Positions 12,400 through 63,631 of a stretch of DNA of 64,000 nucleotides are shown here, piece after piece. Below the pieces are notes generated by a model. That model searched no databases and was not told where the DNA came from. It saw nothing but the letters and a program-made list of their open reading frames with translations. The position numbers were made by a program, and so were the translations under genes. The stretch is from Nitrospirota bacterium. GTDB lineage: Bacteria; Nitrospirota; UBA9217. The DNA lies in NCBI GenBank assembly GCA_963749655.1, contig CAVVOB010000012.1, positions 128,001 through 192,000 on the forward strand. The letters are read 5' to 3'. The first letter of the stretch is position 1. Every line of letters begins with the position of its first letter.

Positions 12400-12535
12400 A
12401 ATTGGTTTTTGACCTGGCATTAAAAAACCTGACTTACAATTCAATCTCTCGGTTTGTAAAGCGTTTTAACAAAGCGCCGGTCCGGAAAACCGGGCCGCGG
12501 CGCCCGGATCTTCCGTGACCGGCGGTGATGCTGAA

Positions 12536-44258: not shown

Positions 44259-44270
44259 GGGAGGCGATCC

Positions 44271-46901: not shown

Positions 46902-47411
46902 ATGAAGCTGAAATCTTTCTGGTCCCCCTATGCAGCGGGAATCGTTCTCGGCCTGACCCTGCTGGCGGTTTTCTTCGTAATGGGCCGGGGACTCGGCGCA
47001 TCAGGCGCCTTTTCCCTCATGACCGGCGTCGGGTTGCACGCTGTTGCGCCGGGCTATGCAGGCAGTCTGAAATATTTTTCCCAGTACCTTGATTCTCCTT
47101 CGCCGCTTCTGAACTGGAACCTCTTCCTGCTCGGCGGCGTTTTCCTCGGCGCGCTGTCCGGCGCCCTTCTTTCGCGGAACTTCGGCCTGAAATTCGACCG
47201 GGGCGCTTCGATGAGCATCGGCAAGCGTTTCCTGACGGCGCTCTCGGGCGGCCTCATAATGGGATTCGCCGCGCGGCTGGCGCGGGGCTGCACGAGCGGA
47301 ATCGCCCTGACCGGCGGCGCCCAGCTGGCCTTGTCGGGATGGATCTTCGTCATCGCGATGTTCGCGGCGGGCTTTTTGTTCGCCGCGCTGTTCAGGAGGC
47401 TCTGGTCATGA
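46902..47411 (+). CDS. YeeE/YedE sulfur transport family, half-size subunit 1
   Basis: WSPYAAG, GLGASG and GFAARLARGCTSG. Confidence 0.9.
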   Translation: MKLKSFWSPYAAGIVLGLTLLAVFFVMGRGLGASGAFSLMTGVGLHAVAPGYAGSLKYFSQYLDSPSPLLNWNLFLLGGVFLGALSGALLSRNFGLKFDRGASMSIGKRFLTALSGGLIMGFAARLARGCTSGIALTGGAQLALSGWIFVIAMFAAGFLFAALFRRLWS

Positions 47412-47983
47412 CTGCTCCCTTTGAATTCAGCGACACGGCCGCACTTGCGCTCGCCGTTCTGTTCGGCTTCTTCTTCGGCCTCTCCCTCGAACGGGGCGGG
47501 CTCGGAAATCCCCATATCCTGACCGGGGTGTTTTACTTCAGGGATTTCACGGTCCCCAAGGTGATGTTCACGGCGATCCTCGTCGCCGCCGTCGGCCTCT
47601 ATCTGCTTTCCGATATCGGCCTGCTGGACATTGCCAGGGTCTGGATCATTCCGACCTTTTTCTGGCCGCAGCTCGCGGGCGGGGCTTTGTTCGGGCTCGG
47701 CTACCTCATCAGCGGCTACTGTCCGGGCACGGGAGTGGCTGGGCTTGCTTCGGGCAGGCTCGACGCGCTCGTTATGATGATCGGCCTTGCAGCCGGTTCA
47801 CTGCTCTTTGCAGTGCTCTTTCCCGCGCTCGAAAGCTTTTATCTCTCCTCAAATATGGGGTCGACGACGCTCGCAAAGCTCGTTGGGCTCAATCACTGGG
47901 TCATTCTCGCCGTCATCGCTGCGCTGGCCGGAGGAATGTTCGTTCTGTTGAACCGGTACGAGAACAAACATCTCAAGTCCTGA
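47408..47983 (+). CDS. YeeE/YedE sulfur transport family, half-size subunit 2
   Basis: ATGA overlap; FGLSLERGG, DFTVPKVMF and GYCPGT. Confidence 0.9.
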   Translation: MTAPFEFSDTAALALAVLFGFFFGLSLERGGLGNPHILTGVFYFRDFTVPKVMFTAILVAAVGLYLLSDIGLLDIARVWIIPTFFWPQLAGGALFGLGYLISGYCPGTGVAGLASGRLDALVMMIGLAAGSLLFAVLFPALESFYLSSNMGSTTLAKLVGLNHWVILAVIAALAGGMFVLLNRYENKHLKS

Positions 47984-47989
47984 CAGCGT

Positions 47990-49447
47990 TCATCGGGTCG
48001 CGGACAGGGGCTTCGTGTTTCTGTTGAAGAGCCCGGACCTGAGCACCAGCCAGAAGAGGCTTCTCGCGCTTTTGAGTGCGACCTTCACATCGCTTATCGA
48101 GTGGAGGTCCAGCAGTTTTCTGACCATGAAGGACGGCCGGAGATAGAATTTCCGGAAGGCGATCTGGCGAAGCTTCTGGATGTCTTCCCGGGTCATTGTC
48201 CTGGGGATGAAGGCGGCGCCCTGATAGGTGTAATCAGAAAGGTCGCTGGAAATTGTGCCGTAGCGCTCCAGGTTGTCGTAGAGATAGGTCCCGGGAAAGG
48301 GCGTAATGGCGTGAAAATTCGCCATGTCCGGGTTCAACCGGACGGCGAATTCTATCGTTTCGAGGCCTTCCTCGAAGGTTTCTCCCGGAATGCCGAACAT
48401 GAAGGGCGTGCTTACCTTGAGGCCCACACTCTGGGCCGCCCGCACAGCAGACCTGATCTGCTCCGGCGTCGTTCCTTTTCTGATCGTGTCCAGGTTCTTC
48501 TGGACTCCGCTTTCGGCACCGAAAAGAACAGCCCAGCATCCGGCATCCCGAAAAGCCTGGAGCAGCGGCCGGTCTACCTGATTGACGCAGGCCGAGGCGA
48601 ACCAGGTGATCGGAAGGCGGCGTTTTTTCATCTCGCCTGCGATCTGCATGGCCCTGTTGTAATCCGCCGCAAAGGTGTCGTCCAGGAATTTTATCTCACG
48701 GTAGCCCTGCCGGACCAGGAGTTCCACTTCCTGCATTACGTTTTCCACGCTCCGGTAGCGGATCCCGCTCTTTCGGTCCTTGTCCATCTGGAAACAGTAG
48801 ATGCAATGCCGGTTGCAGCCCCGCGACGTGATCATCACGGCCACCGGCTTTTGCCGGTACGTGCCCGGGGGAGGGACGTACCGTTCGGCATCGCCCAGCA
48901 GGTCCCGCGCTGGAAAGGGAAGGGAGTCGAGATCGGTGATCAGCGGTCGCGGCGGGTTGGCAATGATCCGCGCTCCCTGCCGGAACACGACGCCGGGAAC
49001 GCCGTGAAGATCTCCTCCCGATTCAAGCCGGCTGATCATCTCGAGCGCCGTCTGCTCGCCCTCGCCCGTAACAACGGCGTCGACGGCAAGGCCTGCCTCC
49101 AGGAGGCTGCGCTCCCGGACCGCTATGGGATAAGGACCGCCTGCGCAGATGAAGCATTCGGAAATCAGCTTCTTGAGGTCCGCTGCCGTCCTTTTCGCCT
49201 TGTTCCAGCCGAAGGTGGTTGAATAGATGCCGATGAAGCGCGGGCCGAATTCCACGATCCTCGCGAGGACCTGCTCGTGGGTCAGAAATGCGCCGTTGAT
49301 GAACCGGACGTCGTGTCCGGCGTTTCTGAGAAAGGCGGCCACGGACAGGGTGCCGACAGGCTGCCAGTAGTTGATCTGTGAGCTTGCGGTCTTCGAGGAA
49401 AAAATTTCTTCAGGGACCCAGGAGGGTATGACGAGTAGGCATTTCAT
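47990..49447 (-). CDS. B12-binding radical SAM protein
   Basis: AGGPY, GEGE, TSRGCNRHCIYC, FGAESG and FPGT. Confidence 0.92.
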   Translation of the reverse strand: MKCLLVIPSWVPEEIFSSKTASSQINYWQPVGTLSVAAFLRNAGHDVRFINGAFLTHEQVLARIVEFGPRFIGIYSTTFGWNKAKRTAADLKKLISECFICAGGPYPIAVRERSLLEAGLAVDAVVTGEGEQTALEMISRLESGGDLHGVPGVVFRQGARIIANPPRPLITDLDSLPFPARDLLGDAERYVPPPGTYRQKPVAVMITSRGCNRHCIYCFQMDKDRKSGIRYRSVENVMQEVELLVRQGYREIKFLDDTFAADYNRAMQIAGEMKKRRLPITWFASACVNQVDRPLLQAFRDAGCWAVLFGAESGVQKNLDTIRKGTTPEQIRSAVRAAQSVGLKVSTPFMFGIPGETFEEGLETIEFAVRLNPDMANFHAITPFPGTYLYDNLERYGTISSDLSDYTYQGAAFIPRTMTREDIQKLRQIAFRKFYLRPSFMVRKLLDLHSISDVKVALKSARSLFWLVLRSGLFNRNTKPLSATR

Positions 49448-49451
49448 AGGC

Positions 49452-50864
49452 TCAATCGGCGTTTGCGAAGGCCAGGTCATCAACGGTCAAGGCCGCGGCA
49501 CGCCTCTTTTCAATGAGCCGTTCCGCTGTTTCGATGCCCGACCGGATCGCGACGTCCATGTTGTAGTAACGGAACATCCCGCTTCTGCCCGCGATGTGGA
49601 GGTTGCGGAATTGTCGGAGATAGTCCTGGAGCACCTCGACATGCTTCAGATATCCGATCTCGAACAGCGGATAGGCCTTGGGGACCCGTACGACCACGGC
49701 GTCCAGCACTTCCTGCGGCTTGATGAAGCCGAGGGCAGCGAGGTTGTCTACGGTGATCCTGGTCAATCGGTCGTCGTGCATGTTCCAGATCGGGTCCCCC
49801 CTGAAGCTGAAGTATTCCGCGACCACCAGCGTTTTGCCCGGCGGCGCCATGGCAGGGCTCCAGTTCGTCGGCTCGTGGATCCTTCCAAAGGGGATTTTTT
49901 TTTCCGGGATATAGATCCAGGTCTGGTCCGTGACCCGTTCCCGGTCCACCATGACGGCGACGACGATGAGGTCCCGGAACTTGAGCCGGGCCGCAGCCTC
50001 GAGAACGGAGCGGGGTGGAACAGGATCGAGCATGGAAACGAGCCTCGTGATCGGAATGCTGGAAACGAACTCTTCCGCCTGCGCTGTATGCAAGCGGCCC
50101 CCGATGCGGGCCGTAATGCCGTCGATTTTGAAGTCCCTGTGGTTGACGCTCACGACCGCCGCATCGGTCAGAACGTCATTGGACTTTTCAATGTTTTCGC
50201 GGAGGACATCGGACAGCCGGCCGATCCCGAGGGACGGATAATCAAAGCTGTCCGTCAACGTGGCGAGTTTTCTGCCGCTGCTGCGGGAAAAGGCGTTCTT
50301 TACCGCTTTTGCCAGGGACAACCCGTTGATACGCTGCGCAACCCAGGATGCGCTGATCCTGCTGCAGTCTATGCCCCAGACCTTTTCGCTGTATTCCTTG
50401 AAGTAGATATTGAACATGGTCCTGCCGAACCGGGAGACCACCCAGTCCTCAAGCGAAAGGGTCGTTTGTTTGCGGACCAGTCGTTTGATCGTTTCCTGCG
50501 CGTAGTCGGCCACGATCGCTGTCGTGGTCAGAAGGCCGAGGCCGAACATGGCATTCAGGGGTTTGAGGGGATAATTGAAGTACTTGCCGCGCATGTAGAT
50601 TTTGCTGCTGCGCGGGACGGTCACGAGTTCGCTGCCCATCAGGCAGCGCACGAAGGAGTTTATCTTTTCGTCCTCCGTGAAGAACCGGTGACCGCCGAGA
50701 TCGAAGCGGAAGCCGTTTTTTTCGATGGTCCGGGACAGGCCTCCGACGAGGGAGTCGCGTTCGAACACGGTGAGCGAGAGCCCGGCCTTTGTCAAAACAT
50801 GGCCCGACGACAGGCCCGAGAGGCCGCCGCCCAGAATAATGGCATCTTTTGTTGAACTCTTCAC
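49452..50864 (-). CDS. FAD-dependent oxidoreductase (HemY / UDP-galactopyranose mutase-like)
   Basis: ILGGGLSGL, FDLGGHRFF, YSEKVWG and GRSGMFRYYNMD. Confidence 0.88.
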   Translation of the reverse strand: MKSSTKDAIILGGGLSGLSSGHVLTKAGLSLTVFERDSLVGGLSRTIEKNGFRFDLGGHRFFTEDEKINSFVRCLMGSELVTVPRSSKIYMRGKYFNYPLKPLNAMFGLGLLTTTAIVADYAQETIKRLVRKQTTLSLEDWVVSRFGRTMFNIYFKEYSEKVWGIDCSRISASWVAQRINGLSLAKAVKNAFSRSSGRKLATLTDSFDYPSLGIGRLSDVLRENIEKSNDVLTDAAVVSVNHRDFKIDGITARIGGRLHTAQAEEFVSSIPITRLVSMLDPVPPRSVLEAAARLKFRDLIVVAVMVDRERVTDQTWIYIPEKKIPFGRIHEPTNWSPAMAPPGKTLVVAEYFSFRGDPIWNMHDDRLTRITVDNLAALGFIKPQEVLDAVVVRVPKAYPLFEIGYLKHVEVLQDYLRQFRNLHIAGRSGMFRYYNMDVAIRSGIETAERLIEKRRAAALTVDDLAFANAD

Positions 50865-51135
50865 GGCGTCACCTGACAGGAACTTCCATAATAGATGAAG
50901 GAGATGATTTCGTGTCCCGTTTCAATTATGCTATGCGAAAAATGCGGCGAAGATCGAGCAACGGACTTCAGATGCAGGAGGATGTTCCTATCATGTTGTT
51001 GTTCATAATTGTTCCCGGGCATCCGGAGTTGTTTTGTCTGATCCGAATGCCCGGGAGTAAGCGCTGCCTGATATGGTACCGATTTCTTGTGGATCATTTC
51101 CCCGGCGACTTGTGCAGCAGCCGGGAAGCGCGAGC

Positions 51136-51462
51136 TTATTTCCCGTAGCCGCCCGCTGCCGGGGCGCCATACCCGCCTGCCTTCGGGGCCGCAGGAGCCC
51201 CGTACCCGCCTGCTGCCGGGGCTGCCGGAGCGCCGTACCCGCCGGCCGCCGGAGCTGCGCCGGAACCGTACCCGCCGGCCGCCGGAGCTGCGCCGGAACC
51301 ATATCCACCTGCCGCCGGAGCTGCACCGGAACCGTATCCACCGCCAGCTGCCTGGCCCTGAATGGCCTTGGCCGTTGTCGTTTCCTGTTGCTGACTATAC
51401 ACCACGAGAAAACCGATAATTGACGCAACGATCGCGATGAGAACTACCAGGGGTGTCTTCAT
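51136..51462 (-). CDS. membrane-anchored Gly/Ala/Pro/Tyr repeat protein (7 x GGYG)
   Basis: AGGAGG RBS, N-terminal hydrophobic helix, tandem ~33-bp repeats encoding GGYGSGAAPAA / GGYGAPAAPAA. Confidence 0.85.
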   Translation of the reverse strand: MKTPLVVLIAIVASIIGFLVVYSQQQETTTAKAIQGQAAGGGYGSGAAPAAGGYGSGAAPAAGGYGSGAAPAAGGYGAPAAPAAGGYGAPAAPKAGGYGAPAAGGYGK

Positions 51463-51498
51463 AACTCCTCCTGTATTCGTATGGGTTGAAGGCCCGTT

Positions 51499-51750
51499 CT
51501 AGGCCTTTTGGATTTTAAAGATGATCTTGCCGCCTTCGTTCTTCTTTTCCACCAGGTCGTGTCCGGCCTGGTCGATCATCTGCACGATCGTTTCCGCGGA
51601 AGAGGGGTTGTCGAAGATCATTTCGAGCGTCTCTCCGGAGTTGATTTTTTCGAGCGATTTCTTGCAGTAAATCTGGGGATGAGGGCATACATAGCCGCAC
51701 ACATCAAGCATGTAGGTTCCGTCGCTTTTTTTTTCAAATTTCATTGCCAT
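51499..51750 (-). CDS. TusA/YeeD family sulfurtransferase
   Basis: LDVCGYVCPHP..DNPSS. Confidence 0.92.
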   Translation of the reverse strand: MAMKFEKKSDGTYMLDVCGYVCPHPQIYCKKSLEKINSGETLEMIFDNPSSAETIVQMIDQAGHDLVEKKNEGGKIIFKIQKA

Positions 51751-51786
51751 GGTAAAGTTCCTCCTTTGATATTGAGTGCCGGATTG

Positions 51787-53205
51787 TTAAAAATCTGCCA
51801 TTTCCGCAGCCATCTTTCTTTCGGACCACCAGTTGAAGAACTTGACGCCGGCAAAGGCGCCGGTCACCATGCCGATCCCGTACAGCCAGCCGCTGGGGTC
51901 GCCGCCTGCGACGCGGATGAAGAAAGCGCCAATGTTGCATCCCAGCGCCGGGCGCGATCCGAGGCCCATCAGCGTGCCGCCCAGGAGACCCCAAACGATC
52001 AGCTCGCCCTTCGGGAGCTTGAACTTGAATTCCTTGCTCATGAGCGACATGATCATGGCGCCGAAGATGATGCCGAGGGACATCCAGAGCGCCGGGTTTC
52101 TCCACAGCTCAGGGAGGCCGTTGTTCACGCCGAAGAACACGTTGTCACGCATGTTCCAGCCGAGCTTGCTCAGGACCCAGGCCCCGAACTGGCCTTCCTG
52201 GCTCGTGATGTACCAGTAGCCGGGGTCGAACACGGTGCCCCGGATGCTGGTGTCCGCTGCATGTCCCATCTTGGTCAGGAGCTGCCCGAAGTTTGAAACG
52301 CCGAACTTGATCTGCATGCCTTTCATGACGAAAATATGGAGTCCCGCCGTGATGCCGATGATGACGCCCATGATAGTGGTTCGCTTGGACGCGGTCAGCA
52401 TGCTCCAGATTCCGGAAAATTCGTCCGCGAACGTAGCCGGTTTGCCCGTCTTTTTCGCGAGTTTTTTCAGGAACCCTTTACGGATGTAGAAAGCATAGAT
52501 AACCACGATAAGTATAAGCGCGGGGATGATCGCGCTGATGAGCGCGTCAGCGACAAAATATTTCGATGCGCCTGGAAGGACGCTGGCAAAGGTTTCGGTA
52601 TGCGAGAGCTGGATCGAAGGTTTGTCCCAGACATAGCCGGTAAGGTAGTAGTCGAACCAGGAAGTGACCTTGTCAGCCGGAAGGTTCTTCGCTGCGGAGG
52701 ATGCTACCCAGGAATCAGGGACCAGTTTCAGGAATGGCCCGCCGACATCGACAAAGATGGCCTGGCCGAAGGATATGCCGAGAATCGAGAGGATCGAGGT
52801 GCCGTTGCCCTCACCGATCTTATACAGCGAGCCCGACGCGCACCCGCCGGCAAGGACCATGCCGACACCGAAGATCATCCCCGAGATGAGTGTATGAATG
52901 CCGAACGGAGCCGGGTGGAAGGTGCTCATGTTCGTGGCCGCCAGGGTAGCCTGGATGATGCTGAAAAAGATAAGTGCCACCAGGATGCCCACGGCCATTC
53001 TGGGAACGCCCGCGGCAAACAGGTCCCTCGATGCCGACGCAAAGCAGAACCTGCCGTACTGCAGCATCATGCCGTAAGCAATTCCGAACCAAATATATAC
53101 TACGAGATACATGTAGTATACATTCGCCTTGTAGTAGAGCAGGCTGATGAAGATCATCACGCCTGTCACGATAAAGGCCCAGATCTGATTTTTTTTCTCA
53201 TCCAT
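51787..53205 (-). CDS. YeeE/YedE sulfur (thiosulfate) transporter, full length
   Basis: Three conserved Cys motifs: GRFCFASA, AGGCASGSL and ALGCNIG. Confidence 0.92.
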   Translation of the reverse strand: MDEKKNQIWAFIVTGVMIFISLLYYKANVYYMYLVVYIWFGIAYGMMLQYGRFCFASASRDLFAAGVPRMAVGILVALIFFSIIQATLAATNMSTFHPAPFGIHTLISGMIFGVGMVLAGGCASGSLYKIGEGNGTSILSILGISFGQAIFVDVGGPFLKLVPDSWVASSAAKNLPADKVTSWFDYYLTGYVWDKPSIQLSHTETFASVLPGASKYFVADALISAIIPALILIVVIYAFYIRKGFLKKLAKKTGKPATFADEFSGIWSMLTASKRTTIMGVIIGITAGLHIFVMKGMQIKFGVSNFGQLLTKMGHAADTSIRGTVFDPGYWYITSQEGQFGAWVLSKLGWNMRDNVFFGVNNGLPELWRNPALWMSLGIIFGAMIMSLMSKEFKFKLPKGELIVWGLLGGTLMGLGSRPALGCNIGAFFIRVAGGDPSGWLYGIGMVTGAFAGVKFFNWWSERKMAAEMADF

Positions 53206-53556
53206 AAGACTATTTCCCCCTTAAAAAATAGTTTAAAAGAAGCAAAAGGATGGTGAACCGATAATTGTGCTCGACTATCGTCCCCCCTTTCCCCGGTGGA
53301 GTCCGCTGATTGATTATAGCAAGTAGCTGGGGCGTTCGTAGGTGAAGGTAAATTTGTGGAGTGCACATCATCTACAGGTGTATATATAAATAACACAAAA
53401 TGCCCACCGAAAACAAGACTTTTTTTCGGGTTTGCGCTGCGTAATTATTTGATTTTAAAATATAAAATTGTAATTTTAGCCTGGATGCATTATGCAACAT
53501 ATATGCATAAACATGGCGTGAAATAAGGGTGGAATTGAGGTGGAAATGTGGGCAGG

Positions 53557-55269
53557 TCAGCGGTCCCGGGCGGCCGGAGCCCCCTGGGCCGCGGAATAGA
53601 CGCAGATGGCGGTCTGCAAACGGAAGATCGCCTCGCTTTTGTCGAACGTTGCGGACAGCCGGCGGCCCCCCAGTCTCTGTATCAGGGCTTTCGGAAGAGC
53701 GGTGGAGGTCATATCCGAGATGACGACGAGTGCGGCGGTCTCCCGGTTTGCGGGCAACGGCGCTTCGTAGTATGGAGGATTTCGGTACTCCCAGGTGAAC
53801 CGGAGTGAGGATTGCATTCTCTCATCGTCGGGGGGGAAAGATTCGGGGGAGTAGCGGAACACCAGGCGTTTGTCGGTGAACAGGTCAAGCAGGGGCACTG
53901 CAGTTGCCGGATTTGCCATGGGGTCCGCAGGAGGGATCGTGATGACCTCGACTTGGTCCTCCTTCAGCGTATTCAGGTATCGACCGGCCCTCTGCAGGTT
54001 TGCAGCGCTCATGGTCTCCGCAAGCGGCAAATAGGCGAAGACCGCAACCACGATCGATGACGTGACGATGCCGTAGGAAATGAAGCGTCGAAGATCATCG
54101 CGTCTGACCATCTGCAGCCCGTATCCGGCCATCAGCGCGAGCATAGGGAAGACCGGAAGCGTGTACCTGATCCGTTTGACGCTGAAGGCAAAGATGAAGA
54201 GAAGGGGCCAGGCCGCAATGAGAAACTTCGCGTCCCGCCGTCGGATTGCAGCAACGGCAGCAACCAGCGCTGCCGCGATTATGAAGGGGTGGGTCTGGAA
54301 CAGGAAGGTAGACAGGAAGCTTTCACCCCACCGGCCGAGTCCGGGTTTCTGATACTCGTGCAGGAGCCGGAGCTGTGCTGCAATCACATCATATTTCAAG
54401 AACAAGACGGTCCCTGCAAGGAGCGCCCCGGCAGCGAGAACGGCAGCGCTGCGGACCACGGTGTTTCTGGCTCCGGGTCCTTTCGTGCTGAAGGCGTAAA
54501 TTACGGCGGCGATGCCGAGCGTGGACAGCATGATCCAGGAGGAGTACTTTGCCATCACGGCCAGCGCCAAAGCGCCTGCGGCACCCAGGATCCGCAAAGC
54601 GCCCCCTTCATGCAAAACCTGGATGAAAGCGTAGAGCGCCAGTGTCAGGAAGAACATGGTCGGTACGTCCACGAGCAGAAGGGGGACCTGGGTCAGCAGG
54701 TACGGGATGCCGATGAGCAGAAGGCCGGCGATGAAGCCCGTTTCGCGGTTCCAGAGCTTTTTCCCGATCCGGCAGGTAAGAACCGAAGTGAGCGCGAACA
54801 GGGCGGTATTGAACAACTGGACGGCGATTCTGCTCTCGCCCGATATTTTAAAGATCAGGCCGTACAGGAACGGCAACAGCGGCAGGTCCGTCCAGGCGAC
54901 GATCGATCGGCCCCATTCCCTGAAAAAGTATCCTGCGCCGTACAGCTCGAGATGTTTGGCCTGGGTGAAGTACCGCGAGGCGTCGACGATGAGCTCGGAT
55001 TCCCGCCAGAAGGGCAGGCATGCCGCAAAGGAGACCGCGGCAAGGAAGGGCTGCTCGAATCGTTCAGGGATTGCGGGCCTCGACAGAATAAAAGCTAGAA
55101 CGAGGCCTGCGACCAGAAGAAGGTAGATCCGCGAGGCGTCGATCCCGGCAAAGGCCCAGGCCCAGCTGAAAAGGGTGTTGTTATCCGCTGTGCGTCCCAG
55201 ATAGGAGCAGACGAAGACCAGAAGAAAAAGAGCGCTGACAGCGAGGACGGGTGCAAGCCTGTACCGCAT
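53557..55269 (-). CDS. ArnT/PMT-family (GT-C) membrane glycosyltransferase
   Basis: DASRY, DLPL.P, LVDVP, AKY, RYTLP and many TM segments. Confidence 0.8.
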   Translation of the reverse strand: MRYRLAPVLAVSALFLLVFVCSYLGRTADNNTLFSWAWAFAGIDASRIYLLLVAGLVLAFILSRPAIPERFEQPFLAAVSFAACLPFWRESELIVDASRYFTQAKHLELYGAGYFFREWGRSIVAWTDLPLLPFLYGLIFKISGESRIAVQLFNTALFALTSVLTCRIGKKLWNRETGFIAGLLLIGIPYLLTQVPLLLVDVPTMFFLTLALYAFIQVLHEGGALRILGAAGALALAVMAKYSSWIMLSTLGIAAVIYAFSTKGPGARNTVVRSAAVLAAGALLAGTVLFLKYDVIAAQLRLLHEYQKPGLGRWGESFLSTFLFQTHPFIIAAALVAAVAAIRRRDAKFLIAAWPLLFIFAFSVKRIRYTLPVFPMLALMAGYGLQMVRRDDLRRFISYGIVTSSIVVAVFAYLPLAETMSAANLQRAGRYLNTLKEDQVEVITIPPADPMANPATAVPLLDLFTDKRLVFRYSPESFPPDDERMQSSLRFTWEYRNPPYYEAPLPANRETAALVVISDMTSTALPKALIQRLGGRRLSATFDKSEAIFRLQTAICVYSAAQGAPAARDR

Positions 55270-55397
55270 GGCGGGATTATAGCATTATCATTGGTGACGC
55301 ACCATGTTTTTCCGGCCGACAGCCGTGCACGGGCAGACTAACAGCATCGAACAATCCGTGTGCATCTCCGGGGTCTCATCCGCATCCGGAGAGGCGT

Positions 55398-56591
55398 TTA
55401 TTCCTTCTTGATCGCTGCCAGGGGTTCCAGGCTCTTGAGCCGCCAAATGGGTGAAAGCGCGCCGACAGCGCATATTACCACTCCCGTAACAAGACCCGCC
55501 GCCGCGATGGAAAGCCGGTCCGACCCCGTGATTCCGTTGGAAAGGGTTTTCAGAATGACGTAGTTTTTTTCAAGAAGCAGCGAAAGCGCTGATCCCGAGA
55601 GAACGCCGACAACGCTGCCGGCAGCTCCGACGGCGAATACCTCGGTCAGAAACAGCAGAACGATATGCGATTTCCGCGCTCCCATAGCCCTCATGATGCC
55701 GACTTCCCGTGATCGTTCCCCTGCAATGGCCGAAAAAATCGACCACGCCAGGAACAGGGACATGAGCGATGTCATGACGATCAGAACGACAAACAATTGC
55801 CTGAGATCCTTCAAGGTCCCGATGATGCTCTTCCCGATATCCTTTCGTGCAATGACGTCCACGTCCACGATCTCACCTTCTACCGCCCGCCCTACGACGT
55901 ATGGATCATAGCCTTTCTTGACCCTGGTCAGGATAATGGATATCTGACCGGCCTTCAATGCGGATTTTCCTTCCCGGAGTATGTCGGTCACGCTTTCCTC
56001 GCCGATGAAGATCGCGTTGTCCAGACCGGTCCCGGTTTTTTCCAGGCTTCCCAGGATGGTGAAGCGGGTGCCGAAGAGGTTGGCATCGACCTCCATGAGT
56101 CCGCGGCCGATGTTGAGAAACGATTCGTACCCGACAATCGCCTCCCCTCTGTTCAGTCTCCTTCCGATCGCTTTGTGCAGCCAGGGCTTGATGATGAAAT
56201 CCGAATCCTGATTGAACGCGACAATTTTTGCCTCGGGGATATCGCAGCAAAGACCGGGAATGGTGGTGAGATAGGTCTGGTACGTGATCTGTTCTATCCC
56301 TTCTATCTTTTCCAGACGGGCGATGACCGATTTGTCCATGTAGAACGATCGCGCCTCGGTCTCGAGCAGCACTTCTTCGGCAATTCGGGACGCTCCGACA
56401 GGGATGACCAGGAGATCGGCTCCAAGCCGGTCGGAGGAACGTTTGATGCCCGAGGTCACGCTCACCACGAAGGACAGACCGAATACCAGCAAACAGGCGA
56501 CGAGGCTTATCGAAAAAGCGAGCACGCCCGTTCTGAAAGGTCTCCTTCGAAGATTCTTTATCCCAAAGGTTAAGAGGCTGAGTTTTTTCAT
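55398..56591 (-). CDS. ABC permease (MacB/FtsX family) with a periplasmic CC motif
   Basis: KNLRRRPFRT, RLGADLLV, PGLCCD and ERSREVGIMRAMGA. Confidence 0.88.
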   Translation of the reverse strand: MKKLSLLTFGIKNLRRRPFRTGVLAFSISLVACLLVFGLSFVVSVTSGIKRSSDRLGADLLVIPVGASRIAEEVLLETEARSFYMDKSVIARLEKIEGIEQITYQTYLTTIPGLCCDIPEAKIVAFNQDSDFIIKPWLHKAIGRRLNRGEAIVGYESFLNIGRGLMEVDANLFGTRFTILGSLEKTGTGLDNAIFIGEESVTDILREGKSALKAGQISIILTRVKKGYDPYVVGRAVEGEIVDVDVIARKDIGKSIIGTLKDLRQLFVVLIVMTSLMSLFLAWSIFSAIAGERSREVGIMRAMGARKSHIVLLFLTEVFAVGAAGSVVGVLSGSALSLLLEKNYVILKTLSNGITGSDRLSIAAAGLVTGVVICAVGALSPIWRLKSLEPLAAIKKE

Positions 56592-56690
56592 AATGGGGTT
56601 GTCGCCGGGGAAAACGAGCGGGCATTCCGGAAACATCACGGAATACCCGCTTTCTATCCTGTCAGTGAACGGGCTGCATCGTGCAGGGAG

Positions 56691-57788
56691 CTATTTTTTC
56701 CAATTGCCGTCTATGCCGCACAGAATAGCACTTCCCGTTATGCCCGCTCCGTCATGGCAGGCCTTGCATGTCGATACCGGCTTGCCCACGAGTTTTTTTG
56801 CGGTCATATCGTACAGCTGTATGGTACCGTCCATGATATCCTTGTTGTCGGCGGTTTTCCCGACGTTTTCACGGAGTGTCAGAACGGCATATTTTCCGTC
56901 GGGAGTAGGCATCACGTCGTGGTTCTCTCCGCTCACCATCTCTTCGTCAAGCACCTTGAGCGTTTTTGCATCCATCAGGACCATCCTGTCCCTGCCCGAC
57001 TGCAACAGATATTTCCCGTCGGTGGTGAAATACTGTCTGAAGGTGATGGTTTTTCCGGGATCTCCCGTGATGGTGGCTTTTTTAGTCACCTTTGCCTTGC
57101 CTTGCTCGAGTGATTTCATATCGAGCATGAGAATATCGATCTTCCCGTTGGGTTTTCCGCCGTCCGCCAGGTTCACCGCCACGACGAAGCTCTTCATGTC
57201 CGGAGTATTCGTGCCGTGATAAAATTTCGTCTCGCCCGGCTTGTAATCAAGGAACACCCGGTGTTTCAGCTTGAGCGTTTTTTTGTCGAATACGTCGATA
57301 TAGGCCTCATCGGTCATGGTAACGGGCATGAAGGAATTATTGGACTGGCCCGAGCCGCAATAGAGCGCACCGGTCCACTTTGCACGATCGTCGAGTTTCA
57401 ACGCCTCGTCCTTTATCACTTTCCCGGTCGTCAGGTCCGAAACGCCGACGTGGACCATGCCGTTTGGGTCCAGTTTGTAGGTTGACCAATACATCTTGGT
57501 CCTGTCCTTGGCGTCGATCCTCGGGTCGTGGGTCGGATGGGTCGTTTTCGATCCGATATCGATTTTGTCCAGACTCGAGATTTTAATGGGATTTTCCGCG
57601 TTGCTCGGGTCGATGACCGCATCAGCCACGGCGAAATGACCGCCCATGGCCGATACATAGAGCTTGCCCGAATAAGTTTTTACCGAAGCCACAGCGGTCC
57701 CTGCTTTGACGTCCGCCGTGCTGAACCCGAGATAAGCCAGCAAAGCAAAAGCTGCGGCAACAATTGTGAGTATCGAGTATCTTTTCAT
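56691..57788 (-). CDS. exported beta-rich (propeller-like) protein with a C-terminal CxxCH heme-binding motif
   Basis: Signal peptide, TPDMK/TTDGK/TPDGK blade-like repeats, CKACH, extra Cys in YCGSG and LCGID. Confidence 0.75.
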   Translation of the reverse strand: MKRYSILTIVAAAFALLAYLGFSTADVKAGTAVASVKTYSGKLYVSAMGGHFAVADAVIDPSNAENPIKISSLDKIDIGSKTTHPTHDPRIDAKDRTKMYWSTYKLDPNGMVHVGVSDLTTGKVIKDEALKLDDRAKWTGALYCGSGQSNNSFMPVTMTDEAYIDVFDKKTLKLKHRVFLDYKPGETKFYHGTNTPDMKSFVVAVNLADGGKPNGKIDILMLDMKSLEQGKAKVTKKATITGDPGKTITFRQYFTTDGKYLLQSGRDRMVLMDAKTLKVLDEEMVSGENHDVMPTPDGKYAVLTLRENVGKTADNKDIMDGTIQLYDMTAKKLVGKPVSTCKACHDGAGITGSAILCGIDGNWKK

Positions 57789-58087
57789 TTTTCTCCCCCG
57801 TTTAGTATATTTCGTATTGTGCACATGCGAATTGCTGAGAGTAACGGATACCGTATTCAGGACAAAATGCAGGCCCTTGCTTCAGGTTATCACCTCCTTT
57901 TCTGGCGCCGAACCGGATCTTCTTCCCTGGCAATGCCCCGGCGAGGGAGAAAAACGGACGGCGTCATTCGGGATTCGTGAGATGATTCTGTATTGCTGCC
58001 CGTCGGAATGTATTGACTGCGTGCGAAAGGAAGGAAAAGCTCCCTCACGATGACATGCCGGCGCCGACAGGCCGAAACGGAGCGCAG

Positions 58088-58384
58088 CTAAGCTGTGACA
58101 GAATATTTGGGAGGATGTTCGTTTTGTACGGCGATAAGGAGTTGCGGGAACAGGGGTGCTGCGGGTCGATTGCATCGAAAGGAGGGGAACGACAACGGTG
58201 CTCCGTACTTGTCAGCCGCTATCGGAGCATCGTCGTGATCGATTGACTCGGTAAAGGACAACGGACATTCATTGAGCGTATCGACGGCTGATGAGCCGGC
58301 GGCGGGTGTGCTGGACGAGGTTGTACAGGGGACGAAGACGTTATACAGCAGCGTGATTGCTATGAGAATGGTGATCCATCTCAC
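58088..58384 (-). CDS. putative DUF2946-like leader protein
   Basis: N-terminal hydrophobic segment, Cys residues, C-terminal EHPP; start uncertain (GTG 58384 or TTG 58402). Confidence 0.45.
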   Translation of the reverse strand: MRWITILIAITLLYNVFVPCTTSSSTPAAGSSAVDTLNECPLSFTESIDHDDAPIAADKYGAPLSFPSFRCNRPAAPLFPQLLIAVQNEHPPKYSVTA

Positions 58385-58561
58385 GGGAGCACTATAGTGC
58401 AAAACAAAAATGCTGTCAATGCAAAAGCCAGGGCTGCAGAGAGGCGAAACTTCGTGATTGCGAAACTCGATAAACCGCAAAGGCCTCTTCATCGGGGCAC
58501 CGGTGAAGGGAACGGCATCGGAACAAGGGCAGCATGTCGCAGGGGCTTGAGGGAAGGAGGC

Positions 58562-58592
58562 AAAACCGGGAGGCATCAATGATGCCTCCCGG
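58562..58592 (-). terminator. intrinsic terminator after the rhodanese gene
   Basis: ccgggaggcatc/gatgcctcccgg stem plus TTTT on the minus strand. Confidence 0.7.
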
Positions 58593-58600
58593 AAGAGGAT

Positions 58601-59101
58601 TTACTTCTGCACGGGATAGTTCTTGGCCCCGGCATTCTTGATGGCCTCCTGCATCAGCTGGCCGCCGCGATAGCCCTTCGCCCACGCGGCATATCCGAAG
58701 GACATGGTATAGGCGTCATAGCCGAGCGCCCGCAGGCCGACGATGGGCAGGTTTTGCGTCTGGCCGGTAACACATGCCAGGATTATCTTCTTTCCCTTCG
58801 GGAGTTTACTCAGGTTTTCCGGCTTGAAAATGTCCTGCACCAAGATCTGGATGGAGCCCGGGATGTGACCTCCTCCGTACTCCGCAGGATTCGGCCGCAC
58901 ATCAACGATGACAAAGTCGGTTTTCTTTGCGCTGATCATAGCCGACACATCGTCGGCGCTGACCTGCCAGAACTTGGCTCCCGCGGCCTGCGAGAGAACG
59001 GTATTCAGTTTTGCGGCCATGTCATCCGCCGCAGAGGCCGTCGGAGCGGCTATGGTTACAGCACAGAGGGCAAGCACCAGTACGATCAGTATCTTTTTCA
59101 T
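58601..59101 (-). CDS. exported rhodanese-domain sulfurtransferase
   Basis: Signal peptide (ASA-A), IVDVR..EY..GHIPGS, active-site CVTGQT. Confidence 0.9.
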   Translation of the reverse strand: MKKILIVLVLALCAVTIAAPTASAADDMAAKLNTVLSQAAGAKFWQVSADDVSAMISAKKTDFVIVDVRPNPAEYGGGHIPGSIQILVQDIFKPENLSKLPKGKKIILACVTGQTQNLPIVGLRALGYDAYTMSFGYAAWAKGYRGGQLMQEAIKNAGAKNYPVQK

Positions 59102-59285
59102 GGTTTTCTCCTTTTTGATGAAGTCGCTATGTCAAAACATTTCACACCACGCGAGGACGAGAAGGCACCGAGGTCATTATAACAAATATATTTGACCTGC
59201 GTTGGAGTCCACCCTGCCCTTAGGACAGGCCCTTCATTTCGCCATGACGGCGGGGAATATCCGGACGCTCACCAACCGTTCTATT

Positions 59286-59594
59286 TCAAAGGACGATCAC
59301 GCGGTCCGCTTCGTGCAGCATGGTTGCGTTGTTGTACTGGCTTCCGCAGACGATTTCCTTCGAGAGCCCTTCCGATGAAACACCCATGTGCTTTGCGCTG
59401 TGGTCGCAAAAGCTCATGGATACGCCGGGCGTCTTGCACAGCTCTGCATAGATCGCCGAGTGGACTACCTTGGTGCCGTCATCCATGTTGAAGAGGGTGA
59501 CCGTATGGCCTTTTGCAAGCGAGGCCATGGTGATCCCTTTTACGGCGTCGAGATTTTTATCGGTATTCACGAAAATGCCGAGTTTCATGAGCAT
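59286..59594 (-). CDS. DsrE-related protein, copy 1
   Basis: LFNMDDG, FCDHSA and CGSQYNNA..ADRVIVL. Confidence 0.85.
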   Translation of the reverse strand: MLMKLGIFVNTDKNLDAVKGITMASLAKGHTVTLFNMDDGTKVVHSAIYAELCKTPGVSMSFCDHSAKHMGVSSEGLSKEIVCGSQYNNATMLHEADRVIVL

Positions 59595-59614
59595 GTCTCC
59601 TTTCCGAATCCTCT

Positions 59615-59782
59615 TTACCAGGACACGACCTTGTCGCTGGAGAATATGAGGTCTACAAGCTTTCCATAATCCTTGTCCTTCCGAATGTCTACGAGAGTTA
59701 CGGTATTTCCCTTTTTGTGGATATCAAGAATAGTTTTTGCAGTGGCGTCGAGATCGCTCTTCTGTATATGGAGAACTTTCAT
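59615..59782 (-). CDS. small conserved protein (DsrH/TusB-like), copy 1
   Basis: MKVLHI..DYGKLVDLIFSSDKVVSW; GAGG RBS. Confidence 0.75.
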   Translation of the reverse strand: MKVLHIQKSDLDATAKTILDIHKKGNTVTLVDIRKDKDYGKLVDLIFSSDKVVSW

Positions 59783-59810
59783 TATCATCACCTCTTTAGG
59801 AAAATTAGTT

Positions 59811-60083
59811 TTAGTAGGGCACAATGTGGTCGTACTCAAGGAGCTTCTTTGCTAAATCTTCGGTTGACAGAAAATCCATGCCGTCATTCGCTTTCGTATT
59901 TGTGCAAAGCTTCATGCCCATGTCTTTGATCGTCTCGAGGTTCAGGTCGTTGTCGTCGTTTTTTTCGACCTTCCTGTCGAGCACATAGACATCGATCGTA
60001 TCGTCCATGAGCGTGACGCCGACGGACATCCGGAGGGCCTCACCCTGCCGGTCTCTGACGAGTACTGCGACTTTCTTTGCCAT
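59811..60083 (-). CDS. small conserved protein (DsrF-like), copy 1
   Basis: KKVAVLVRDRQGEALRMSVG..LAKKLLEYDHIVPY. Confidence 0.78.
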   Translation of the reverse strand: MAKKVAVLVRDRQGEALRMSVGVTLMDDTIDVYVLDRKVEKNDDNDLNLETIKDMGMKLCTNTKANDGMDFLSTEDLAKKLLEYDHIVPY

Positions 60084-60722
60084 GCGTTCCTCCTTATTAT
60101 TCGTATTATAGAAATTCTGGTTCATGTGCCGGGACTGATCCTGTCGTCATCGGATTTTGAACGACACCACCTCCTCGATCAACTGGTGACAACGGCGCAG
60201 TGGAAAAAAATTCGTGTTGAGAGAAATGATTGCGCTCCGACGGTTGTGTGATCCGGGGAGCCTTAGTTGCAGGATAAAGAATGTTAGCAGTTTCTAAACA
60301 GAATTAATTTGTTTCAGCAGGAATATGGTGTTCGGATGCGCGTACCATAATACAAAAAAATCCAAATTGCAAGCAGAGACCGGTTGTCTGTTCCATAAAG
60401 TCTCATTATGCGGTAATGAAAGATTTTTATACGACTGCACCGGCCGTCCAGCCGGACGGTTCGGCAGGTTTTCTTTCCTTCTGAAAACGAGTATTGACAG
60501 GCGGGATGGTTTTTGTTAAGGTACTGTGTCCTGCCCGTTCGGAATCGCATCCATCATCGACAATCATCGAACTATTGACGGGACGCTGTGCAGCCGGCAG
60601 CGCTGGCCGTTTTTTTTTCGGCCCGAGCACAATGCGGGAGCGGATTTCTTCAAGCTCATGGGGTGGGTAACGGGCTGCGGAAAGGCCCTAATTTGATACT
60701 TATCAATTGAGGAGGAACGATC

Positions 60723-60971
60723 ATGGCACTGAAAGACGAAGCACCGAAAGAAACGCTGGATACGCTCGGAAGAGTATGCCCCTATCCGCTTCTGCTGACC
60801 AAAAAAGCGCTGGAGAAGCTCGGCAGCGGCCAGATGCTGAAGGTTCTTTGCGATGCGCCCGCATCGGCCGAGGACAGCATCCCCCGGTATGCAGAGAAGC
60901 AGGGCTATACGTTCGAGTCCGTAAAGCTGGAAGACAAAGGCATGTGGGAGCTGTACATCAAGAAGTCCTAA
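60723..60971 (+). CDS. tusA: TusA family sulfurtransferase
   Basis: LDTLGRVCPYPLL..KKAL..LCD; GAGGAGG RBS. Confidence 0.92.
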   Translation: MALKDEAPKETLDTLGRVCPYPLLLTKKALEKLGSGQMLKVLCDAPASAEDSIPRYAEKQGYTFESVKLEDKGMWELYIKKS

Positions 60972-60993
60972 TTCGAGCACGAGTCAGTACCGT

Positions 60994-61027
60994 AGCCGGG
61001 CAGAAGCAATCTGCCCGGCTTTTTTTT
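60994..61027 (+). terminator. intrinsic terminator after tusA
   Basis: agccgggcaga..tctgcccggct plus T-run. Confidence 0.85.
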
Positions 61028-61163
61028 AGTATCGAGACCAGGCAGGCGACGGACTTCCTTCTTGCGGGCGATGCACCTGTCCGTGGGCGGAGGAAGGCAA
61101 CTTTGTCGTGGTTTTCTTCAGAGCGAAGTGGGATAATTGCCGCTGGCGAGAGGAGGTGAGACA

Positions 61164-61469
61164 ATGGCGAAAGGGACACTGGGCATCATGATAACGAAGT
61201 ATGAGAACCTGGAGCATGTTTCCGGCGTGGTAAAAGCCGCGAGCGCCGCAGGGCATGGGGTCATGGTTTTCATGACCGATGAAGGCGTCAGGTTCACGAA
61301 GGACCCGAAGTTCCTCGAACTGCTCAAGGTCGGCGGTGTGGAAATTTCATGCTGCGACCACAGCTGCGAGGGGGTGGGGCTCCATGACAAGACCGACGGC
61401 ATATCGTACGGCAGCCAGTACAACAACGCGATGATGCTGCATGATTGCGCGCGGGTACTGGTGTTCTGA
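61164..61469 (+). CDS. DsrE-related protein, copy 2
   Basis: VFMTDEGV, CCDHSC and YGSQYNNA. Confidence 0.85.
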   Translation: MAKGTLGIMITKYENLEHVSGVVKAASAAGHGVMVFMTDEGVRFTKDPKFLELLKVGGVEISCCDHSCEGVGLHDKTDGISYGSQYNNAMMLHDCARVLVF

Positions 61470-61494
61470 CAAATCGACAAAAGGGAGTCTGCGA

Positions 61495-61773
61495 ATGGGA
61501 GACACGAAAAAAATAGCGGTCATCGTCAGAGACCGGCCGGCAGAGGCGCTCCGCGTTGCGGGCGGACTCACGCTGGCTGACGACACCATCGAGGTCTTTG
61601 TCCTCGACGGAAAGCTTGAGAAGGAGAAGGCCGAGGTCGCGATGCCGCTCGAACTGGTGACGGATCTCGACCTGAAAGTGTATTCCAATAATGCGGCGAA
61701 CGGCTATGCGACAATCACCCTGGAGGAGATGGCAAAAAAGCTCCTTGAGTACGATGTCGTGGTCCCGTATTGA
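61495..61773 (+). CDS. small conserved protein (DsrF-like), copy 2
   Basis: KKIAVIVRDRPAEALRVAGG..MAKKLLEYDVVVPY. Confidence 0.78.
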   Translation: MGDTKKIAVIVRDRPAEALRVAGGLTLADDTIEVFVLDGKLEKEKAEVAMPLELVTDLDLKVYSNNAANGYATITLEEMAKKLLEYDVVVPY

Positions 61774-61795
61774 GCGTGACGAAGGAGATGAGACG

Positions 61796-61966
61796 GTGAA
61801 AATACTTCACATCCTGAAAAAAGCGCCGGACGCGAGCACCCGGAAGATCATTGAGCTCCAGTCGGCCGGCAATGAAGTCAAAACGATCGAGCTGTACAAG
61901 GGCGGCGTGGCCTACGACAAGCTGGTGGCCGACGCGTTCGCCTTTGACAAGGTTTTCTGCTGGTAA
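61796..61966 (+). CDS. small conserved protein (DsrH/TusB-like), copy 2
   Basis: GTG start after AAGGAG; KILHI..YDKLVADAFAFDKVFCW. Confidence 0.75.
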   Translation: MKILHILKKAPDASTRKIIELQSAGNEVKTIELYKGGVAYDKLVADAFAFDKVFCW

Positions 61967-62335: not shown

Positions 62336-62483
62336 ATATCACGGCGAGATGTTTAACCACGGATAAGCGCGGATGTGCTTGACCTTGTTACCCTGTGGTT
62401 TCAAATGCCGCTTTCAGGATTGTTTTATTCTGGAAGACCGGGTGAGCCCTTGTCGCGGGCGAGTTTGTCCTTGGAGGTCATCA

Positions 62484-63410
62484 ATGCAGTGCAGAACCTG
62501 CAGCACCATGAATGATGCCGACGCCGTTTACTGTATTGAATGCGGCAGTCCGCTTGCCGGCAAACAGCAGAACGGGCTTCGGAAGCAGCGAGGGCCCTAC
62601 TGGTACGCCCTGCTCTTTGTGCCGGTCATTCTGATCGCCGTTGCCGTGGGATATTACAAGTTCTTCCTGCCCGACGGCGTGGCCGCGGAAGTGAACAGCG
62701 AATCGATCAGGATGTCGGAACTTAATGCGGCTGTTGCCCGCATGCAACAGGGGAGTTCGGGATCTCCGTGGCTCCGGTACCAGGCCCTGAACGAGTTGAT
62801 CACCGAGCGGCTCGTGATGCAGGAGGCTGAGAAGGCGGGGATCAGGGCATCCCGGGACGAGGTTTCCGCGGCAGTTGACGAAGCCCGCCGGCAGTCAGGG
62901 TTCGACCAGGGGACGTTCGGCAGGGAAATCACCTCCCGCTACGGCAGCATGCATGAATACGAGCGTTTCCTGGAGCGACGCATCACGATCAACCGTATGA
63001 TCGCAGAAAAGGTAATTCCCCGCGGGGCTGATGCTCAGACTTCCCGCAAGGCAGTGAGCCAATGGCTGCAGAAGCTTTCCGGAAGTGCTTCGATAAGGAT
63101 CGCCCTTGCCGAACAGATGCCGAGTACTGGCTGCGGCTGTAGTTCCGGGCCAGGGGACAAAACCGGACAGGGGCACGGCATGCCGTCCCGCGGTTGCGCC
63201 ATGTCGGCCAAGGCGCAGGATTCCGCAGTCTCCGACTCCCTTATGCCGGCAAAGGAAGCAGGTCTTCGCTACTGGCATGAGAAGCACGGGCCCGGGGAAA
63301 TTTCGGCGCGGGCAGCGGACTTCGGCTGTCACATCCAGGTCGACATCGTAGAAAACGGGAAAATCATCGCTTCCCTCCGGTATCAGGACGGGAACATATC
63401 TGGACTGTGA
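62484..63410 (+). CDS. zinc-ribbon + TM + SurA-N-like domain protein with a Cys-rich C-terminus
   Basis: CxxC..CxxCG, AEVNSESI, ALNELITERLVMQEA, GCGCS and DFGCHIQ. Confidence 0.7.
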   Translation: MQCRTCSTMNDADAVYCIECGSPLAGKQQNGLRKQRGPYWYALLFVPVILIAVAVGYYKFFLPDGVAAEVNSESIRMSELNAAVARMQQGSSGSPWLRYQALNELITERLVMQEAEKAGIRASRDEVSAAVDEARRQSGFDQGTFGREITSRYGSMHEYERFLERRITINRMIAEKVIPRGADAQTSRKAVSQWLQKLSGSASIRIALAEQMPSTGCGCSSGPGDKTGQGHGMPSRGCAMSAKAQDSAVSDSLMPAKEAGLRYWHEKHGPGEISARAADFGCHIQVDIVENGKIIASLRYQDGNISGL

Positions 63411-63631
63411 CACCACAGAGAGCACCGAGGAATGGCCGGGAAGACATAAAACGCCAAGGGATGAATTCGTTAAATAGGGTGTTCTCCTCTCACGACCAAA
63501 GGCCGAGCGAAAAGGACTATTGGGATGAGGACTCAGGGGATATGATTTCAGTTTTTCATCAACTCAGAAATTTCTCAGTGAACTCTGTGGTTTGATTTTG
63601 ATACTGCGAAATTGTAGAAAAGGAGATTGTT

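Follow-up and report, generated by a model that had tools for sequence, protein, structure and literature searches.

In the YTD gene cluster, the dsrE-like gene, along with a pair that encodes hypothetical proteins, was shown in 2026 to represent DsrEFH type II, and persulfide transfer from TusA to DsrE to DsrC was demonstrated in vitro with cable-bacterial E. aureum proteins (PMC13293266). The same study found the trio in 985 genomes, and it occurred in 25 of 63 cultured disproportionators as well as in many non-disproportionators; the trio was read as a marker of sulfur oxidation, and its use as a disproportionation marker was called poorly supported. A second study concluded the same fold but favored disproportionation (PMC13047784), while a third placed YTD among the leading disproportionation candidates, being present in all elemental sulfur (S0)-disproportionating Desulfobacterota and Nitrospirota studied, yet considered it unfit as a sole marker (PMC12998232). 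YTD has also been reported in a non-disproportionator (PMC9676032), and YTD or TusA levels were higher on thiosulfate (PMC9751629, PMC13490349). Here we analyze a region of 15 kb, positions 46,902 to 61,966 of a 64,000-nucleotide stretch of a Nitrospirota bacterium assembly (GCA_963749655.1, contig CAVVOB010000012.1, positions 128,001 to 192,000 of the forward strand; hereafter the window), which holds YTD-type genes together with an exported beta-propeller protein.

On balance, our analysis favors a mosaic of three modules, namely the known sulfur relay, a separate propeller operon, and a glyco-modification block, in what is probably a Nitrospirota genome; the closest named relatives of the window proteins belong to this phylum. 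The relay is already known, as its trio is the DsrEFH type II of the YTD cluster, and what is new here is the duplicated copy. The useful result is the propeller operon, which defines a conserved, unnamed family with 820 homologues (among 4961 candidates) and 223 matching places in species-level genomes, and which offers a specific, expressible candidate enzyme. The operon and its putative promoter comprise the following features:

58419-58391, minus strand: sigma70-like promoter site ahead of the propeller operon, 11/12, a consensus match only
56691..57788, minus strand: exported six-bladed beta-propeller with one CxxCH, 365 amino acids (aa); no named family, fold model
55398..56591, minus strand: MacB/FtsX-type ABC permease with the periplasmic CC motif C115-C116, an obligate propeller partner; PF02687

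Searches with the propeller protein and its profile gave no match in Pfam, NCBIfam, or the PDB sequences, and the family was without a name or description in the non-subscription literature searched. The structural model (pLDDT 92.8) had its best matches among YWTD-type folds, led by nidogen (Z 26.4, root-mean-square deviation (rmsd) 2.6, 257 aligned residues). YWTD propeller domains have six blades. Fold searches with this model returned generic propellers only, with no solved enzyme standing out. In 117 homologues, all four cysteines and seven of the eight histidines were at least 95% conserved, compared with one of the 39 lysines. H51, H87, C144, M158, H191, H290, the CxxCH motif, and C357 were also kept in 26-28 of 28 distant relatives, which were hand-picked full-length representatives; H51 and H191 had been part of the locus search patterns, so the locus counts for these two are partly circular. 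As H87, C144, H191, R251, H290, and C357 each come back at corresponding positions where a blade begins, they may form a ring at one mouth of the propeller tunnel. We think it fairly likely that the propeller has a site for copper or another metal, and it is probably a new periplasmic copper-heme enzyme, where both copper binding and substrate are inferred.

Among 8000 propeller candidates, no fused form of greater length was found. A search for representatives did return relatives with other architectures: P0121, P0122, P0125, P0126, P0127, and P0142 are tandem, circularly permuted propellers, some with Fn3/Ig domains, and P0130 is a fusion with a caspase domain in which several of the conserved residues have been lost.

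To describe the genomic setting of the family we used a scan of species-level genomes, and all neighborhood counts given here refer to the best 80 of the 223 places with a propeller. Hosts fall into three groups, Nitrospirota, Hydrothermarchaeota, and Desulfobulbaceae, and three Desulfurivibrio isolates are among the last. In 75 of the 80 loci the CC permease immediately follows the propeller, with two of the five misses near contig ends, and an ATPase cluster is present in 69. Copper chaperones are frequent neighbors, with PCuAC in 32 loci (26 within 400 nucleotides), NosL in 16, and HMA in five, and at least one of the three occurs in 50 loci, compared with 17 loci that have yeeE, tusA, or dsrE/F/H nearby and two that have the full E-F-H trio. 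The same held where 8 kb or more of sequence was available on each side of the propeller: of 31 such loci, 21 had copper chaperones and seven had sulfur genes. PCuAC, NosL, and HMA sit on different branches of a quick propeller tree, and because close kin share the same chaperone labels, these counts represent a few independent associations rather than 50.

Two further features lie near the propeller. In nine loci (L009, L046, L054, L056, L058, L063, L068, L072, and L074) a second conserved operon encodes NosL, a small membrane protein, another permease of the FtsX type, an ATPase, and a membrane protein of 335 aa that has no annotation. In the window, a candidate open reading frame (ORF) of 98 aa (58088-58384, minus strand) starts ~7 nucleotides after the -10 box and ends in HPP, which we take to be reminiscent of the small proteins ahead of metal operons; as no homologue was found in the 80 loci, it is not a conserved operon member.

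The CC motif of the permease is present in 71 of the 73 long ORFs of the permease cluster, and in three Nitrospirota loci of one clade (L023:7820, L026:11589, and L060:5252) an in-frame TGA replaces the second cysteine codon, with the frame open beyond it. A TGA at this conserved position points to selenocysteine, and the permease is a candidate for a new selenoprotein family. SaoP is the only one named in the permease passages of a 2026 review of selenoproteins (PMC13188914), and the SaoP model NF040733 matched neither the window permease nor the orthologue in L066. A test for selenocysteine insertion sequence (SECIS) elements was not counted: each of the three permeases has a hairpin after its TGA, yet comparable ones also occur in the cysteine variants. 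The Desulfurivibrio permease is intact in D14AmB and C05AmB, which PMC13426511 names D. modestus and D. nitratireducens, respectively.

Expression data are available from Desulfurivibrio dismutans AMeS2, whose proteome on formate and nitrate has been compared with that during sulfur disproportionation (PMC12142623). The propeller orthologue P0N66_RS06555, which is 53% identical and was matched by coordinates, holds rank 21 on formate and nitrate and drops to rank 1495 during sulfur disproportionation, a log2 change of -5.15 (p 4e-5, ~35-fold; Table S1 of that study). In the sorted numeric list it stands fourth from the end, with a value that lies between those of NapA (-6.0) and the octaheme nitrite reductase (-4.6), and it is more abundant than the latter (rank 78). 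The propeller orthologue is among the most nitrate-induced and most abundant proteins of a cultured strain, and we found no discussion of it in the sections of the paper examined. The ATPase of the propeller locus was detected on nitrate only, and a NosL had a log2 change of -3.1. D. dismutans also has a split yeeE pair of similar size, whose first gene was up on S0 (log2 +1.4), and one full-length YeeE with a change of -1.6. The strain needs sulfide-reduced medium for growth on nitrate and cannot use sulfide as the donor for nitrate reduction (PMC12142623).

We propose that the propeller is an exported six-bladed protein with a c-type heme whose conserved histidines and cysteines most likely bind copper. 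The MacB-type ABC transporter would mature it, with the periplasmic CC/CU motif handling metal or sulfur, and in relatives the chaperones PCuAC, NosL, or HMA would take part. Most likely the propeller is a redox enzyme that serves when the cell respires nitrate and sulfide is low; its substrate would be either a nitrogen oxide or sulfide, and we rate the former somewhat higher. We do not consider it a disproportionation protein. A reading made from the sequence alone had treated the propeller and the permease as parts of a sulfur relay, which is not supported, given the prevalence of copper chaperones over relay genes in the propeller loci and the lower level of the D. dismutans orthologue on sulfur disproportionation.

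The second module, the sulfur relay, is composed of the following genes:

46902..47411, plus strand: first gene of a split YeeE/YedE, 169 aa; PF04143 (E 4e-23), GCxSG cysteine Cys130
47408..47983, plus strand: second gene of the split YeeE/YedE, 191 aa; PF04143 (E 7e-16), GYCPG cysteine Cys105
51499..51750, minus strand: TusA-1 (CPHP), partner of the full-length YeeE; PF01206 (E 2e-19)
51787..53205, minus strand: full-length YeeE/YedE sulfur transporter; PF04143 (E 4e-41), motif cysteines 54, 122, and 423
58601..59101, minus strand: exported single-domain rhodanese, active-loop Cys110; PF00581 (E 2e-13), hydrophobic leader 4-22
59286..59594, minus strand: DsrE type II copy 1, catalytic Cys63; PF02635, profile alignment
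59615..59782, minus strand: DsrH type II (Chp2) copy 1; chp2 alignment rows, Desulfobulbaceae tusA-E-F-H partners
59811..60083, minus strand: DsrF type II (Chp1) copy 1; Nitrospirota rows of the chp1 alignment
60723..60971, plus strand: TusA-2 (CPYP), ahead of the second trio; PF01206 (E 1e-21)
61164..61469, plus strand: DsrE type II copy 2, catalytic Cys64; profile alignment
61495..61773, plus strand: DsrF type II (Chp1) copy 2; fold model compared with DsrF and TusC
61796..61966, plus strand: DsrH type II (Chp2) copy 2; chp2 alignment rows

Both trios are contiguous, and each of their E, F, and H proteins has matching rows in the alignments that PMC12998232 gives for dsre, chp1, and chp2. 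Together with the DsrE cysteine and the DsrF fold, these matches establish the small proteins as YTD orthologues, as had been proposed from the sequence alone, with closest named relatives in Nitrospirota. DsrE copy 1 is identical at ~60 of 98 positions (counted by eye) to one Nitrospiraceae row of the YTD dsrE alignment, and the trio proteins are 28-40% identical to their counterparts in Desulfobulbaceae tusA-E-F-H operons. Both DsrE copies keep the catalytic cysteine, with Cys63 and Cys64 aligning to Cys78 of A. vinosum DsrE in 2HY5_A (four-sequence DsrE profile, E 0.17, the better of two PDB hits). The model of DsrF copy 2 (pLDDT 86.9) superimposes on DsrF 2hy5_B (Z 9.1, rmsd 2.2, 86 aligned) and on TusC 2d1p_B (Z 9.2, rmsd 2.1, 84 aligned), and its top rows are all DsrE/F-like; sequence profiles of F and H gave only chance hits in the PDB. 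The two copies are only 42% (DsrE), 51% (DsrF), and 40% (DsrH) identical to each other, so the duplication is old. On the minus strand, the order is F-H-E without an adjacent tusA, and yeeE-tusA-1 lies ~6 kb from this copy. On the plus strand, tusA-2 directly precedes copy 2 to give the order tusA-E-F-H; TusA-2 is 45-47% identical to the TusA proteins of such operons in loci L014 and L015 and 38% identical to TusA-1.

The full-length YeeE has motif cysteines at all three positions, whereas the split pair has two and lacks the cysteine of the first motif. The full-length protein had 1406 matches at E<=1e-50 among 8000 scored candidates, with named hits mostly from Nitrospirota. The cut-offs of the NCBIfam equivalogs for TsuA/YeeE thiosulfate transporters were missed (111 bits vs 400 and 67 vs 645). 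Neither an orthologue of the first split yeeE gene nor the window rhodanese (tblastn) was found beside the propeller in the 80 loci.

In the relay as we envisage it, YeeE would move sulfur across the membrane, TusA would take it up on its CPxP cysteine, and the two diverged copies of DsrEFH type II would hand it on to DsrC, so that the Dsr system could oxidize it. The transfer from TusA through DsrE to DsrC is inferred for the window proteins by analogy with the E. aureum proteins, while the YeeE and rhodanese steps, as well as the oxidative direction, are presumed.

The third module surrounds yeeE and tusA-1 and adds four genes:

47990..49483, minus strand: B12-binding radical SAM protein at the end of the yeeE-tusA-GGYG block; PF04055 and PF02310
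49452..50864, minus strand: PRK07208-family flavin oxidoreductase in the same block; NF005548, 458 bits vs a cut-off of 389
51136..51462, minus strand: membrane-anchored GGYG-repeat protein with seven GGYG units, directly after tusA; hydrophobic segment 5-23
53557..55269, minus strand: GT-C (PMT_2-type) membrane glycosyltransferase; PF13231 (E 5e-11)

The combination of yeeE, tusA-1, the GGYG gene, and the B12 radical SAM gene recurs in six of the 80 propeller loci, where TusA-1 orthologues (60-70% identical) follow yeeE, the GGYG protein follows tusA, and the radical SAM orthologues are 63-70% identical. GT-C is beside yeeE in six of the 80 loci, and the flavin enzyme is part of the block in two. 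Elsewhere the block is often accompanied by GT2, SPASM radical SAM, and USP genes, and four of the six block loci belong to one clade; we found no GT2 or SPASM radical SAM gene in the window. The GGYG protein matched no family in Pfam or NCBIfam, and as it has no cysteine, it is unlikely to be a sulfur carrier. Two candidate identities for it were rejected. A resemblance to sulfur-globule proteins found no support, with one unnamed Nitrospirota cluster in the Atlas (0.90, low recognition) and nothing in a literature search; as for Chp3 of the YTD cluster, the listed Chp3 rows in the alignments of PMC12998232 are dissimilar to it, and the listed GGYG hits (two of 29 places) fell in molybdoenzymes. 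We suggest that GT-C, the flavin oxidoreductase, the B12 radical SAM protein, and the GGYG protein may form a glyco-modification block that travels with yeeE-tusA, and the simplest guess is that it modifies an envelope component.

The gene inventory of the sequence-only reading is borne out by ORF listing and family scans, in which all of the listed genes were found, although it had left out the B12 radical SAM, flavin oxidoreductase, and GT-C genes. The genes do not form one relay: they are spread over both strands and make up five or more transcription units. The split yeeE forms a unit on the plus strand, and a long unit on the minus strand contains the propeller, the permease, GT-C, yeeE, tusA-1, the GGYG gene, the flavin oxidoreductase gene, and the B12 radical SAM gene; further units hold dsrF-H-E and the rhodanese gene on the minus strand and tusA-2 and dsrE-F-H on the plus strand. 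Terminator-like hairpins after the rhodanese gene (58592-58566) and tusA-2 (60994-61020) and 14 promoter-like sites (8.0 expected), all of them consensus matches only, are consistent with this split. An Rfam scan of the region gave no match, and no dsr, apr, or sat gene was seen among the window ORFs (translations by eye and motif scan; window only).

Several points weigh against separating the propeller from the relay or against the functions proposed for them. An orphan dsrF-II, with no detectable dsrE or dsrH, lies directly upstream of the propeller in L004, L008, L011, L012, L027, and L065, while yeeE is directly upstream in two loci and the whole block is present in 6-7; as this association with sulfur genes is found on separate branches, the modules may have a functional connection. 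Many of the 80 contigs are short. In the window, there is no PCuAC, NosL, or HMA gene, no ATPase gene adjoining the permease, and no dsrC or dsrAB (window only). The ring of residues was placed from blade periodicity rather than from coordinates, and the match of DsrE to 2HY5 is statistically weak taken alone. The expression evidence comes from one organism with a 53% identical orthologue, and as its cultures differ in formate donor and sulfide, the effect of nitrate cannot be separated from those of low sulfide and of copper supply. Moreover, the AMeS2 permease (L020:11257-12529) is frameshifted in the assembly and was undetected, and the propeller was still abundant.

One alternative is a single integrated pathway. 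Here the propeller would be a periplasmic sulfide or polysulfide dehydrogenase with chemistry like that of the copper enzyme thiocyanate dehydrogenase (TcDH), sending electrons out via its heme, and sulfane sulfur would go through rhodanese, YeeE, TusA, and DsrEFH type II to Dsr in nitrate-coupled sulfur oxidation. The relay genes in the flanks of 17 loci come from several branches, the propeller has two invariant non-heme cysteines, and its hosts are Nitrospirota, Desulfobulbaceae, and Hydrothermarchaeota; the requirement of D. dismutans for sulfide-reduced medium on nitrate is also in line with it. Against this, 63 of the 80 loci have no relay gene, no sequence link between the propeller and TcDH was found, and D. 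dismutans, with its abundant propeller, cannot use sulfide for nitrate reduction (but its permease is broken). We consider such a pathway unlikely. In its boldest form, which we hold to be equally doubtful, the propeller would stand for a new kind of copper-heme oxidoreductase in the periplasm. A MacB-type transporter with CC/selenocysteine would mature it, and it would perform the first step of nitrate-coupled sulfide oxidation in bacteria with a reductive-type Dsr and pass sulfane sulfur to the neighboring YeeE-TusA-DsrEFH type II; the broken permease of AMeS2 would then explain why this strain does not oxidize sulfide with nitrate. The sulfide reading would matter because the first sulfide-oxidizing step of D. 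alkaliphilus has been called unresolved (PMC5516251), and it bears on how bacteria with “sulfate-reducer” gene sets oxidize sulfide with nitrate, notably in the periplasmic steps.

It is quite improbable, in our view, that the propeller is instead a non-enzymatic protein for binding, storing, or sensing copper or heme, served by the ABC transporter and produced if copper is at hand or the cell is under nitrosative stress. Metal handling would account equally well for the copper chaperones and the ABC system, copper would precipitate in sulfide-rich cultures, and the relatives include tandem, circularly permuted, and Fn3-fused forms; however, the covalent heme and the invariant R251, D267-R268, H290-D291, and R306 resemble an active site.

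We give a similarly small chance to a biosynthetic role for the full-length YeeE and TusA-1, in which they would provide the neighboring enzymes (radical SAM, flavin, and glycosyltransferase) with sulfur for modifying the envelope with a sulfur-containing group, possibly at the GGYG protein. The co-conservation of the block, which several loci extend by GT2 and SPASM radical SAM genes, and the low identity of TusA-1 to TusA-2 are in keeping with this, but four of the six loci form one tight clade, the window is without GT2 and SPASM genes, and no enzyme exceeded a curated cut-off for a sulfur-inserting family.

Least probable of all, and very unlikely, is a reading in which all 15 kb serve as a relay devoted to disproportionation. 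In its favor, YTD orthology holds, YTD is universal in the S0-disproportionating Desulfobacterota and Nitrospirota of PMC12998232, the first split yeeE gene of D. dismutans is up on S0, and two disproportionators, D. dismutans and strain M19, carry the propeller. Against it, the propeller orthologue is down on S0, the trio is shared with non-disproportionators and missing from most of the 63 cultured disproportionators (PMC13293266), and the region has several separate operons with no dsr, apr, or sat gene in the window.

We therefore return to the mosaic of a known relay, a propeller operon, and a glyco-modification block. The broader suggestion, made from the sequence alone, that these genes indicate disproportionation potential is weak and in our judgment rather unlikely, given the distribution reported in PMC13293266, although YTD remains a strong candidate in PMC12998232. 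YTD neighborhoods should not be read as disproportionation markers.

Outside the region, the window contains several other features, some of which were identified by eye:

925-1704: IS110-like transposase fragment in a low-GC stretch (by eye)
4380-13648: catabolic cluster (by eye) with a SerA-like dehydrogenase, a D-serine-dehydratase-like pyridoxal phosphate enzyme, an aminotransferase, ferredoxin-like and unknown proteins, and a tripartite tricarboxylate transporter
14098-15033, plus strand: lone adenosine-deaminase-like ORF in a low-GC stretch (by eye)
15424-15503, plus strand: c-di-GMP-I riboswitch within low-GC sequence (RF03167, 72 bits)
43962-44588, plus strand: two tandem TRL-family lipoproteins (PF13146)
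62373-64000, plus strand: SurA-N domain protein with a zinc ribbon and a Cys-rich tail, followed by a zinc-ribbon membrane protein running off the window

Compared with the described YTD and DsrEFH type II systems, the locus shares the YeeE, TusA, and DsrE/Chp1/Chp2 orthologues, the DsrE catalytic cysteine, the tusA-E-F-H order of copy 2, and the Nitrospirota host. It differs in having two diverged trios on opposite strands, one of them in the order F-H-E, a yeeE that is ~6 kb away with its own tusA, and an additional split YeeE. With A. vinosum DsrEFH type I (2HY5) and TusBCD (2D1P), it has in common the fold of the F subunit (Z ~9) and the position of the DsrE cysteine, but identity is at most 20% and the genes lie outside an oxidative dsr operon.

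Of the known propeller enzymes, nitrous oxide reductase, for which NosDFY and NosL have accessory roles, resembles the system in combining a propeller that has conserved histidines with an ABC transporter and, in relatives of the window propeller, with NosL/PCuAC neighbors. NosZ 2iwf_A matched the propeller model with Z 20.5, among many tied propellers. However, the window protein is a single propeller without a cupredoxin CuA domain, its transporter is MacB-type rather than NosDFY-type, and it matched none of the NosZ or L-NosZ family models; the most distant relative, P0218, reached 44 bits on the clade III L-NosZ model NF052460 (cut-off 700 bits). P0218 also had weak matches, far below the cut-offs, to methanethiol oxidase MtoX/SBP56, from which the family differs by the presence of heme c and the lack of MauG among its conserved neighbors. 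TcDH is likewise a periplasmic propeller with copper-handling gene neighbors in sulfur-cycling bacteria, but it has seven blades, is ~56 kDa in size, is Tat-exported, and uses a separate cytochrome (PMC6504805), whereas the window propeller has six blades and 365 aa, no twin-arginine motif, its own CxxCH, and no sequence match to it. We regard TcDH as the closest working analogy to the propeller rather than as its family.

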